DNA from: a virus
Lineage: Duplodnaviria > Heunggongvirae > Uroviricota > Caudoviricetes
IMG/VR virus record: IMGVR_UViG_3300035502_000495
Length of the DNA stretch: 64,000 bases
Reading direction: 5' to 3' (one strand)
Numbering within the stretch: position 1 is the stretch's first letter; each line of letters begins with the position of its first letter. Of the stretch, positions 34,508 through 35,325 are shown one piece after another. The position numbers and the translations under genes are program-made. The notes under the pieces were generated by a model. It saw only the letters and a list, made by a program, of their open reading frames with translations. It ran no database searches and was not told where the DNA came from.

Positions 34508-34592
34508 GCGAATGAAGGGATTTGAACCCTTGCACTATTTCTAGCTCACTGATTTTGCAGACCAGCGTCTTGAACCTCTCGACCACATTCGC
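34508..34592 (-). tRNA. tRNA, anticodon loop CUGCAAA (GCA, Cys) with atypical 17-nt variable region, 85 nt
   Basis: 7-bp acceptor GCGAATG/CATTCGC, 3-bp D stem, anticodon stem CTGGT/ATCAG, T arm AAGGG-TTCAAAT-CCCTT, U73 discriminator. Confidence 0.5.
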
Positions 34593-35245
34593 AAGAAAAA
34601 TGGTAGAGTTATTACTCTACCATCAAAAATTCCTCTCTATGAAATACGAGAAACCTAGAAAGAGAATTTTTGGTTAATACAATATTCTTCAAAATTGTAA
34701 ATTTATCAAAATTTTAATTTGCTGTAGGCTTCTCAAAATCCTCAGGAGGAATGACTCTCCATTTCTTAGATAATTTTTCTAAGTGTTCTCTTTAAACTAT
34801 TGAGGATAGCAGTTTTATAAACTGCATATTAATATATTATTCTAAGGAAAGAGGCTAGACAAGTTAATAACTATTCCGTCTAACGTTGCAATTATTATTG
34901 TTATTAGTATAATAATTATTCTACGCTCAAAAGGAGAAAATAGTGGAATTAATATTTCTTTTTCACAATTTGTTTTATTATTTCATCATAATAGTTAATT
35001 TGCAGTTGACTTGTCTATTAAGTATCATGTGGTAATCGAAACCACACCCTTAGATTGGAAATCTAATATTCTTCCATTAAACTAATGATACAAAATCAAG
35101 ATACTATGTCTTTTTATTTTACTAATTGTTATAAATTTGACATAAATTCACAATTGGAGTTATACAGGACGTATAACAAATATAAATTAAAAATAATCCT
35201 TAAACAATTTGATAATTTATAATTGCTGTTAAATAGTATCTTTAA

Positions 35246-35325
35246 GCTGGAGGTGGGATTCGAACCCACGAAACTTTCGTAATAGATTACAAATCTATCC
35301 CCGTTGACCGCTAGGGTACTCCAGC
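35246..35325 (-). tRNA. tRNA, anticodon loop UUUGUAA (UGU, Thr by position) with 12-nt variable region
   Basis: Acceptor GCTGGAG/CTCCAGC (G1-C72, C2-G71), D loop TAGCGGTCAAC, anticodon stem ATAGA/TCTAT, T arm GTGGG-TTCGAAT-CCCAC. Confidence 0.45.

Follow-up and report, generated by a model that had tools for sequence, protein, structure and literature searches.

Long variable arms on a phage tRNA-Cys(GCA) and tRNA-Thr(UGU): class-II-type cores with apparently cognate identity elements

Introduction

Reviews describe bacterial transfer RNAs (tRNAs) as structurally uniform, confine long variable arms to Leu, Ser and bacterial Tyr, with selenocysteine (Sec) tRNA, allo-tRNA, selC* and nev-tRNA besides (PMC9976931, PMC4033280, PMC5389517), and list Leu, Ser and bacterial Tyr as the only class II tRNAs (PMC9976931, PMC4033280). 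A stretch of 64,000 nucleotides (nt) of viral DNA (IMG/VR record IMGVR_UViG_3300035502_000495, Caudoviricetes; the whole stretch is called the window below) carries two genes outside this list: a tRNA-Cys with the anticodon GCA and a tRNA-Thr with the anticodon UGU, each with a long variable region. The question raised by this locus is which amino acids such tRNAs would carry, and why there should be an arm on isotypes that normally have none.

The original prediction, made from the sequence of the window, left three possibilities: hybrid tRNAs mischarged by seryl- or leucyl-tRNA synthetase (SerRS, LeuRS), i.e., deliberate mistranslation; novel structural variants; or a fold that was off by a register. 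The second is the one that has held up, in that both genes belong to large, conserved families with class-II shape which keep the Cys or Thr identity elements. Judged from sequence, both are probably (at roughly 80%) normal working tRNAs, cognately charged with Cys and Thr, on a class-II core.

Structure of the Two tRNAs

Both genes were called by ARAGORN, and both match the Rfam tRNA model (RF00005) over its full length, with the scores listed in Table 1 against a gathering score of 29. According to cmscan, the inserted nucleotides (14 in the tRNA-Cys, 10 in the tRNA-Thr) lie in the variable region, with none in the D loop or the anticodon loop, which disposes of a refolding with an intron or an enlarged D loop. 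Both genes have a 7-base-pair (bp) acceptor stem, a 5-bp T stem, a 5-bp anticodon stem with a 7-nt loop, and a T loop of the UUCRAAU type; the acceptor, anticodon and T stems are fully paired, and U8, A14, G18G19, the T loop and a possible G15-C48 pair are intact. As in class II tRNAs, the D stem has 3 bp (13:22 being unpaired) and the D loop is enlarged.

The segments of the tRNA-Cys are GCGAAUG-UG-GUC-GAGAGGUUCAA-GAC-G-CUGGU-CUGCAAA-AUCAG-UGAGCUAGAAAUAGUGC-AAGGG-UUCAAAU-CCCUU-CAUUCGC-U. Its perfectly paired acceptor stem (GCGAAUG/CAUUCGC), 3-bp D stem, anticodon loop (CUGCAAA), discriminator U73 and 17-nt variable region had all been predicted, and both ARAGORN and Rfam recover them. The variable region comprises three unpaired nucleotides, a 4-bp stem (GCUA/UAGU), a GAAA loop and a 2-nt tail ending in C48, and the hairpin is present in the minimum-free-energy (MFE) fold.

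The segments of the tRNA-Thr are GCUGGAG-UA-CCC-UAGCGGUCAAC-GGG-G-AUAGA-UUUGUAA-UCUAU-UACGAAAGUUUC-GUGGG-UUCGAAU-CCCAC-CUCCAGC-U. Here too, ARAGORN and Rfam bear out what had been described, i.e., G1-C72, C2-G71, the UUUGUAA loop and a 12-nt variable arm. By homology, the variable region is laid out as U, an AC-GAAA-GU mini-hairpin and a UUC tail ending in C48; the register is fixed by the variable regions of the homologs L156 (cGGgaaaCCuuc), L145 (uGCgaaaGCcuuc) and L216 (uCUCgaaaGAGuuc), and both stem pairs covary. A variable region of more than 10 nt that forms a stem-loop, as expected of class II, is clear for the tRNA-Cys, marginal for the window tRNA-Thr, and supported for the Thr family as a whole. 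Of the checks that had been proposed, Infernal supports both genes, while MFE folding supports the variable hairpin of the tRNA-Cys and not that of the tRNA-Thr. The loci themselves had been placed correctly; the ends given, 34508 and 35246, were one nucleotide off through omission of the discriminator base, and the strand (minus) had not been stated.

Table 1. Positions in the window of the two long-arm tRNA genes, their parts, the array that contains them and the adjoining protein gene.
Feature	Position	Strand	Basis or remark
tRNA-Cys(GCA), 86 nt, 7/5 (acceptor/T stem) cloverleaf, U73, class-II-type core	34507..34592	-	ARAGORN; Rfam RF00005, 59.3 bits
tRNA-Cys variable region UGAGCUAGAAAUAGUGC, 17 nt	34532..34548	-	cmscan insert placement, MFE fold, ARAGORN drawing
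tRNA-Cys U8-G26 region UG-GUC-GAGAGGUUCAA-GAC-G, 3-bp D stem, 11-nt loop	34566..34585	-	ARAGORN, segment table
tRNA-Thr(UGU), 81 nt, 7/5 cloverleaf, G1-C72, C2-G71, U73, class-II-type core	35245..35325	-	ARAGORN; Rfam RF00005, 56.5 bits
tRNA-Thr variable region UACGAAAGUUUC, 12 nt	35270..35281	-	cmscan insert placement; register from homologs
tRNA-Thr U8-G26 region UA-CCC-UAGCGGUCAAC-GGG-G, 3-bp D stem, 11-nt loop	35299..35318	-	segment table
tRNA array with both genes	34507..44050	-	14 ARAGORN calls and 2 Rfam-only tRNA-like genes
PHROG 850 "RNA-binding protein" gene (Pfam DUF2828/DUF7788; TROVE-like)	32627..34096	-	neighbour of tRNA-Cys; synteny anchor and bait for relatives

Long-Arm tRNA Families in Phages and Bacteria

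Both genes have many relatives of the same shape. These were collected with sequence patterns, the structure-aware one for Thr(UGU) with a long variable region being TTTGTAAN{17,30}GGGTTCGAATCCC. The scans fix the T arm and the anticodon loop, and the counts are lower bounds, not frequencies; cellular genomes were scanned with the Thr pattern. In IMG/VR, the Thr pattern was found at 99 loci and the Cys pattern at more than 119; among the matches listed, ARAGORN called 88 Thr(tgt) and 104 Cys(gca) genes with a variable region of at least 9 nt. The unique long-arm tRNAs recovered number at least 93 for Thr(UGU) and at least 72 for Cys(GCA), from diverse phages and, for Thr, also from bacterial chromosomes. 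By-catch of the same scans included long-arm Met, Asn, Phe, Ile, Val and Lys tRNAs.

The long-arm Thr family is defined by a GCY acceptor start, U73, a 20-nt U8-N26 region with a 3-bp D stem, a UUUGUAA anticodon loop, and a variable region of 11-20 nt (N, a short stem with a tetraloop, and a 3-4-nt tail), and the window tRNA-Thr has every one of these features. The family D arm (3-bp stem, UAGYGGUCGAY-type loop) is the same as in the window; the 3-bp form is common to the family, whereas type-I Thr tRNAs have 4-bp D stems. The closest relatives among the matches listed (L156, L145, L216 and L377, the last from Eremiobacterota) have 78-83% identity with the window tRNA-Thr. L156, for example, has the D sequence tacccaagtggtcaacggga and the variable region c-GG-gaaa-CC-uuc, where the window has taccctagcggtcaacgggg and u-AC-gaaa-GU-uuc, with both stem pairs covarying.

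Among the 93 Thr and 72 Cys unique sequences listed, hairpins of at least 3 bp can be formed by the variable region in 81% of the Thr tRNAs (44% after shuffling) and 92% of the Cys tRNAs (66%), and hairpins of at least 4 bp in 27% (10%) and 51% (25%), respectively. GNRA loops dominate, the commonest being GAAA (23) and GCAA (8) in Thr and GAAA (21) in Cys. In an ungapped alignment of 34 long-arm Thr tRNAs, 96.3% of the cells of the class-II cloverleaf are paired, and covariation is 0.653 versus 0.164 for shuffled sequences (0/500 shuffles). The D stem is 100% paired and all three of its pairs change on both sides; the variable stem likewise has double-sided changes in 3/3 pairs, and the pairs 1-72 (GC) and 2-71 (CG) are invariant in 34/34. 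This covariation and the agreement of two independent programs back the long-variable-region cloverleaf, and the fear of a fold off by a register was thus unfounded. A chance origin is excluded, because the homologous families number dozens and covary.

The Thr form is not confined to phages. In 185,579 species genomes the Thr pattern occurs at more than 120 loci, and 51 of the matches listed are true long-arm Thr(UGU) genes. About 25 Spirosoma species among these matches have a near-invariant, lone gene of 85 nt; in S. fluviale it lies amid genes for a DUF349 protein, an amidase-like protein and an alpha-amylase on a contig of 2.6 Mb. In several genera of Eremiobacterota, the long-arm Thr(UGU) gene, whose D and variable stems covary between genera, is divergent and adjoins a Tyr-Gly-...-Thr(GGU) cluster; the Thr(GGU) of the same genome is an ordinary type-I tRNA of 75 nt. 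That this might be the canonical thrU slot was considered and rejected: the gene is divergent beside the cluster, and no tuf is found in the approximately 550 bp downstream in L389. Long-arm Thr(UGU) genes are also present in Kiritimatiellia and Verrucomicrobiota among the matches listed.

Cultured phages have tRNAs of this kind as well. CcrColossus has a long-arm tRNA-Trp(CCA) of 86 nt and a tRNA-Lys(CUU) of 88 nt, and Pseudomonas phage D6 has a long-arm tRNA-Cys(GCA) of 84 nt, all annotated by anticodon only. The tRNA-Asn(GUU) of phiKZ, likewise annotated by anticodon only and as 89 nt, has the D arm CCC-GAGUGGCAGCA-GGG, the variable region U-GGC-GAAA-GCC-CACC and the cognate discriminator G73. 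The core is the same as in the window pair, but the isotypes (Asn, Lys, Trp and Cys) and the hosts differ. No description of the architecture of these phiKZ, CcrColossus and D6 tRNAs was found in the literature searched (open-access papers and bioRxiv).

Charging Identity

In both tRNAs, the acceptor end and the anticodon, which are known to be read by cysteinyl- and threonyl-tRNA synthetase (CysRS and ThrRS), keep the canonical determinants, i.e., U73 and GCA for Cys, and G1-C72, C2-G71, G35 and U36 for Thr. The hinge that joins these two ends, a class-II core with a 3-bp D stem, an enlarged D loop and a variable-region hairpin, is the one remodelled part. Both tRNAs would thus probably be charged with Cys and Thr and used in translation. 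The strongest argument for this comes from the conservation of the Thr form on bacterial chromosomes.

Hasegawa et al. reportedly showed in 1992 that the ThrRS determinants in Escherichia coli are these same four elements. All four are present in the window tRNA-Thr, and G1-C72 occurs together with C2-G71 in 90 of the 93 unique long-arm Thr tRNAs among the matches listed. For tRNA-Cys, U73 and GCA are the major CysRS determinants (Pallanck 1992 and Komatsoulis 1993, as cited in PMC5389517), and the window tRNA-Cys has both. The cysteinylation of selC*, a tRNA-Cys whose variable arm is long, by CysRS (PMC5389517) sets a precedent for tolerance of such an arm. Elements of the other synthetases are missing from both genes: where SerRS expects G73 and G2-C71 there are U73 and C2-G71, and neither the A73 of LeuRS nor the A73 with GUA of tyrosyl-tRNA synthetase (TyrRS) is found.

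The arm itself can be compared with those of genuine tRNAs from the same loci (Table 2). By its geometry the long-arm core is Tyr-like, not Ser-like; the arm of the window tRNA-Thr (12 nt, 2-3 bp, 3-nt tail) is not Ser-like either, and A73 is found in about 0% of the long-arm Thr and Cys families among the matches listed.

Table 2. Arm geometry and discriminator base of tRNAs from the same loci (long-arm Thr and Cys: unique sequences among the matches listed).
Isotype	Variable region, median	Stem	3' tail	Discriminator
Ser	18 nt	5 bp	1 nt	G73 141/154, U73 13/154
Leu (long-arm)	14 nt	4 bp	1-2 nt	A73 126/126
Tyr	14 nt	3 bp	3 nt	A73 83/85
Long-arm Thr	15 nt	3 bp	3-4 nt	U73 90/93
Long-arm Cys	16 nt	3-4 bp	about 3 nt	U73 71/72

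The bodies of the two tRNAs were also scored with a naive-Bayes isotype classifier that is blind to the anticodon and the variable region (670 tRNAs, 86% leave-one-out accuracy). For the tRNA-Cys, Cys ranks first and Ser second by 3.8 nats. For the tRNA-Thr, the ranking is Ser > Leu > Cys > Tyr > Thr. Scored segment by segment, it is Thr-like in its acceptor/discriminator and anticodon arm, and its D arm scores -23.8 nats for Ser, -24.3 for Cys, -26.4 for Tyr and -36.8 for Thr, i.e., 13 nats worse for Thr; the Tyr/Ser-like D loop that had been noticed in this gene is thereby seen by the classifier too. Thus, the tRNA-Thr is Thr at its ends, where the ThrRS determinants lie, and class II in its core. 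The window's own tRNA-Tyr has a D arm (ACCU-AGCGGCGA-GGGU) resembling that of the tRNA-Thr (CCC-UAGCGGUCAAC-GGG).

Several points weigh against cognate charging or against a regular class-II arm. The variable hairpin of the window tRNA-Thr has only 2 bp and a GAAA loop and is the one left unformed in the MFE fold, and in 8-10 of the 34 aligned Thr sequences the variable stem is unpaired in the modal register. ThrRS is a class II synthetase, a class that is generally described as approaching the tRNA from the side of the variable loop; the tolerance of the arm by ThrRS would therefore have to be presumed from conservation. Further Thr(UGU) genes are possible beside the long-arm copy in the Spirosoma and Eremiobacterota genomes. 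The arm of the tRNA-Cys (4 bp/GAAA, 2-nt tail) resembles that of the phage's own tRNA-Ser(UGA) (3 bp/GAAA) and is borderline with respect to Ser geometry. The U73 seen in a minority of genuine Ser tRNAs (Table 2) leaves room for SerRS binding, and Mukai et al. regarded G73 or U73 with a long variable arm as suggestive of Ser identity (PMC5389517). Thus, the residual doubt concerns the action of SerRS on the tRNA-Cys.

Long and Short Forms in One Slot of the Array

Relatives of the window were found with the PHROG-850 protein as an anchor, which gave 39 loci from IMG/VR and 80 from metagenomes (human gut, rumen and deer); the identity of their anchor proteins with that of the window is at most 83% at the amino acid level. 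The order of the slots (gene<-Cys-Gly-Thr-Ala/Arg) has been kept across these relatives. In those with 72-83% identity (L001, L040-L044), the Cys slot (71-74 nt) and the Thr slot (71-73 nt) hold ordinary tRNAs. In L080, L054, L057, L239, L275 and L292, the Cys slot holds a long-arm tRNA-Cys, with the anchor gene directly downstream in L239, L275 and L292. Long and short versions replace each other in one array slot within the clade.

The window and its 119 related loci have 891 tRNAs altogether. A long variable region is present in 7/50 Cys, 1/43 Thr (the window gene itself), 3/48 Trp, 4/30 Lys and 2/23 Val tRNAs, and also in some suppressors. The converse is found as well: 31 of the 71 Leu-anticodon tRNAs of the clade have short, type-I variable loops of 4-7 nt (e.g. 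L003:4345-4416, 4749-4822, 4986-5062 and 7672-7747). Thus, in this clade the class of the arm is loosely tied to that of the anticodon.

How the Cys arm may have arisen can be seen from L080 (long) and L092 (short), which share the same D arm and a nearly identical acceptor stem. Their variable regions, tatgc and tatgcAGAAATGTGC, imply an insertion of approximately 10 nt into a type-I tRNA-Cys. The D region of the tRNA-Cys (20 nt) is identical in the window, L239 and L275. The arms are uga-GCUA-gaaa-UAGU-gc in the window, uga-GCAUC-acu-GAUGU-gc in L239, uaa-GCA-gaaa-UGC-gc in L275 and uau-GCA-gaaa-UGU-gc in L080, i.e., the flanks are fixed and the pairing has been kept through compensatory changes and indels. 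These genes make up a long-arm Cys subfamily of the clade, which has the D region UGGUCGAGAGGUUCAAGACG and the variable region U-R-R-GC...hairpin...G-Y-GC and is located directly upstream of the TROVE-like gene; the window tRNA-Cys conforms to this description. L080 and L292 are related to the window/L239/L275 group, and all adjoin the homologous anchor gene. All Cys tRNAs of the clade, whether long or short, have G1, U73 and the loop sequence CUGCAAM, and a large D loop on a 3-bp stem is typical of them.

A chimeric origin, with the variable and T arms of the tRNA-Cys derived from a phage tRNA-Leu (UGAGCUAG vs UGGGCUAG, the T arms being similar), was considered and dropped, because Cys tRNAs of the clade (L045, L007, L239 and L275) have the same T and D arms, and the variable arms of L080 and L275 are homologs of the one in the window.

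Two other sets of unusual tRNAs were seen in the related loci. Suppressor tRNAs (CUA, UCA) of 93-95 nt with a Trp-like body are present in L076:1875-1967, L100:9584-9678 (minus strand) and L033:2518-2610. Their "variable arm" is a second well-paired stem-loop of the anticodon type, CU-CCA-AA (Trp), giving two anticodon arms in tandem, and they could be intermediates in suppressor evolution or tRNAs with dual reading. A family of 83-84-nt tRNAs shares the body gtcagtatagcttaattggtaaagcgg... (L007:2644-2727, L064, L065:3505-3587, L066:4154-4236 and L072:12-95); its anticodon loop is that of Cys (GCA) or Trp (CCA) or of abnormal length, and its 16-17-nt variable region is poorly paired.

Alternative Explanations

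Could the arm recruit SerRS, LeuRS or TyrRS, so that Ser, Leu or Tyr is in part inserted at Cys and/or Thr codons? Both anticodons are a single base (position 36) from a Ser anticodon (UGU/UGA and GCA/GCU), and nev-tRNAs are class II tRNAs with class I anticodons that can be mischarged (PMC3333845). The classifier puts Ser first for the Thr body and second for the Cys body, but the Ser-like score of the tRNA-Thr comes from the D arm only, the acceptor/discriminator and the anticodon arm scoring as Thr. U73 in some genuine Ser tRNAs, and U73 with a long arm taken as Ser-like for allo-tRNAs (PMC5389517), point the same way; against this, both genes have C2-G71 instead of G2-C71, and A73, the base in 100% of Leu and 98% of Tyr tRNAs, is absent. 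The arm is Tyr-like in geometry, with a stem of 2-3 bp in the window tRNA-Thr compared to a median of 5 bp in Ser, and the cognate determinants are near-invariant in the 93 and 72 family members among the matches listed, which would hardly have persisted if the cognate synthetase were irrelevant. Since the long-arm Thr(UGU) is moreover a conserved bacterial chromosomal gene, the deliberate mistranslation first envisaged is very improbable. The narrower idea that both are Ser tRNAs altered at anticodon position 36 was rejected, as neither the acceptor stem nor the discriminator nor the arm geometry supports it. Decay, in which small insertions damaged tRNA genes in a fast-evolving phage array and left non-functional copies, is the least credible explanation. 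It would accord with the aberrant tRNA-like genes of this array (described below) and with the sole long Thr among 43 in the clade. Nevertheless, both genes have high Rfam scores (59.3 and 56.5 bits), fully paired stems and intact tertiary-core nucleotides; they belong to conserved, covarying families; and they are the only Cys and Thr genes that the array has.

Cognate charging leaves the reason for the arm to be explained, and a further proposal, which is compatible with it, is that the arm is an anti-defence or self/non-self handle. Either the arm and the remodelled core would protect the tRNA from those nucleases or modifiers of the host which target tRNAs by their type-I shape or by the host variable loops, or a phage factor would tell phage tRNAs from host tRNAs by the arm. 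That close relatives have long or short forms in one and the same syntenic slot, with hairpins that turn over fast between fixed flanks, would fit such a role, as would the recurrence of the design in phage arrays on Cys, Thr, Lys, Trp, Val, Met, Asn, Phe and Ile tRNAs and the presence in the window of an RNA ligase and a TROVE-like RNA-binding protein. Variable arms are a documented arms-race surface, in that retron-Eco7 and Septu cut tRNA-Tyr in the variable arm and the T5 tRNA-Tyr, by the account cited in PMC13096335, escapes via a divergent variable loop. The antiphage toxin FaRel2 (toxSAS) targets tRNA-Thr and tRNA-Gly, but it recognises the acceptor stem and not the variable loop (PMC11245113), and was for that reason rejected as the selective agent for the arm. 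There is no known defence system that a long arm on a type-I tRNA would defeat; long forms make up just 1/43 of the Thr and 7/50 of the Cys tRNAs in the clade, so the arm is dispensable there; and, since free-living bacteria have a conserved gene of this architecture on their chromosomes, it can be explained without a role specific to phages. The handle is thus a tentative and rather unlikely explanation. In its broadest form, equally doubtful, phages would systematically rebuild arm-less tRNAs (Thr, Cys, Asn, Lys, Trp, Met and others) on a Tyr-like class-II core with unchanged identity, the arm being an adaptive handle over the tRNA pool: it could resist tRNA-targeting defences, make the tRNAs invisible to host modification or decay, or spare the phage's own tRNAs while those of the host are destroyed. 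The chromosomal copies in Spirosoma and Eremiobacterota would then be the evolutionary source, or a result of the same pressure.

Comparison with Other Long-Arm tRNAs

A close structural parallel is with the bacterial class II tRNAs, especially tRNA-Tyr, which share with the window pair the 3-bp D stem, the enlarged D loop and the variable hairpin. The geometry of the long-arm Thr family matches the tRNA-Tyr of the same loci (about 14-15 nt, 3-bp stem, 3-4-nt 3' tail); tRNA-Tyr, however, has A73 with GUA, where the window pair has U73, C2-G71 and UGU or GCA. A tRNA-Cys with long variable arm, U73 and GCA is known as selC*, and has been shown to be cysteinylated (Mukai et al. 2017, PMC5389517), but its structure is 8/4, its D arm is Sec-like and it is linked to SelB*/CysRS*, whereas the window tRNA-Cys is a plain 7/5 tRNA in a phage array. 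Allo-tRNAs (8/4 or 9/3; Mukai et al. 2017) combine a long variable arm with many non-Ser anticodons in bacteria and phages; unlike the 7/5 window pair with its cognate identity elements, they have Ser (or Ala) identity and are missense or nonsense suppressors. The nev-tRNAs of nematodes (Hamashima et al. 2012, PMC3333845) resemble the window pair in having class-II shape with class-I anticodons, but they are eukaryotic, rare and poorly expressed, and have Leu identity elements and are leucylated (mistranslation), whereas the window families keep the elements that match the anticodon. Arm class and identity are also uncoupled in the type-I tRNA-Leu of Streptomyces coelicolor (PMC6614811), where the arm was lost from a class II tRNA, as in the short Leu tRNAs of the phage clade; in the window pair, the arm was gained on class I identities. 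In the T5 tRNA-Tyr that evades retron-Eco7 (cited in PMC13096335), a pre-existing class II arm was modified, whereas in the window the arm is on isotypes that normally lack it and the link to defence is hypothetical.

No description of 7/5 class-II-shaped Thr, Cys or Asn tRNAs was found in open-access papers or bioRxiv, and instances stand unremarked in GenBank. The 7/5 structure separates the window pair from allo-tRNA and selC*, and the anticodon-matching identity elements separate it from nev-tRNA; the long-arm Thr and Cys families are apparently undescribed.

Two conserved families thus break the rule that long arms are found only on Leu, Ser and Tyr tRNAs, while keeping the marks of cognate identity: Thr(UGU) in many phages and on the chromosomes of at least three bacterial lineages, and Cys(GCA) in many phages, with the same design on Asn, Lys and Trp tRNAs of cultured phages, among them the model phage phiKZ. 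Provided that they are cognately charged, CysRS, ThrRS, the synthetases for Asn, Lys and Trp (AsnRS, LysRS and TrpRS), EF-Tu and the ribosome all tolerate a class-II core, which would be relevant to tRNA engineering and the design of orthogonal pairs. For annotation pipelines and screens for "mistranslation" there is a warning here: mischarging cannot be read off from a long arm on a tRNA with a class-I anticodon. The families also raise the question of whether phages and tRNA-targeting defences contend over variable arms, which is tractable in phiKZ/P. aeruginosa, CcrColossus/Caulobacter, D6/P. syringae and Spirosoma isolates.

Genomic Setting

The source of the window is a large phage of the gut/rumen type, with 29.6% G+C overall. 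From 34.5 to 44.05 kilobases (kb), the minus strand has 14 tRNA genes by ARAGORN, and the Rfam model adds two tRNA-like genes, giving an array of 16, which from its 3' end reads Cys, Gly, Thr, Arg, Ala, Gln, Lys, Ser, Ser, Leu, Tyr ... Cultured phages gave no match to the 10.5-kb array by megablast or to the window tRNA-Cys by blastn, and no match to an exact 20-mer of the tRNA-Cys was found in IMG/VR, so that the phage itself is absent from the collections searched. None of the 10 open reading frames (ORFs) near the array is a gene for an aminoacyl-tRNA synthetase or for tRNA modification.

In more than 100 related loci, the PHROG-850 (DUF2828/DUF7788) gene is always directly downstream of the tRNA-Cys slot. 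This gene and the RNA ligase gene of the window (48045-49262) suggest an RNA-repair or tRNA-maintenance module. A terminator-like hairpin of 11 bp followed by UUUUCUU (34599-34624, minus strand) ends 6 nt before the 5' end of the tRNA-Cys, and may be a transcription stop or a processing signal between tRNA-Gly and tRNA-Cys.

Within the array, the two tRNA-like genes missed by ARAGORN (40552-40619 and 39537-39605, both on the minus strand; 44.6 and 40.7 bits) have anticodon loops of just 5 nt (UUAUU and UAGCC), and may be degenerate tRNAs or tRNA mimics. A 74-nt "tRNA-Ser(UGA)" (40909-40982, minus strand) is borderline by Rfam (29.3 bits), with mismatches in its stems and a variable region that is short; its 5' end overlaps an ORF (40968-41681), and the isotype classifier does not group it with Ser. 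The tRNA-Tyr of the window (39124-39207, minus strand) has a practically stemless variable region of 15 nt (GACAUCAGAAACAUC), which resembles the unpaired ones of some long-arm Thr tRNAs, e.g. CACAUAAGAAACAUU in L165.

Other products encoded in the window are gyrase A and B, a DNA ligase, the RNA ligase, a protein of the vault type, and a tail protein accompanied by a reverse transcriptase (RT). The latter two are part of a diversity-generating retroelement (20498-24248, plus strand) with a variable repeat (VR) at 22027-22123, a template repeat (TR) at 22683-22779 and the RT at 23007-24248. The repeats are 97 nt long with 85% identity, and where they differ the TR, which lies downstream, has an adenine; the VR, upstream of it, makes up the 3' end of the tail-protein gene (PHROG 17147/5302), which is then followed by the RVT_1 reverse transcriptase. 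The vault-like gene (13538-16060, minus strand) encodes a protein of 840 amino acids with the shoulder and repeat domains of the major vault protein (PF11978, PF17795), which is unusual for a phage.

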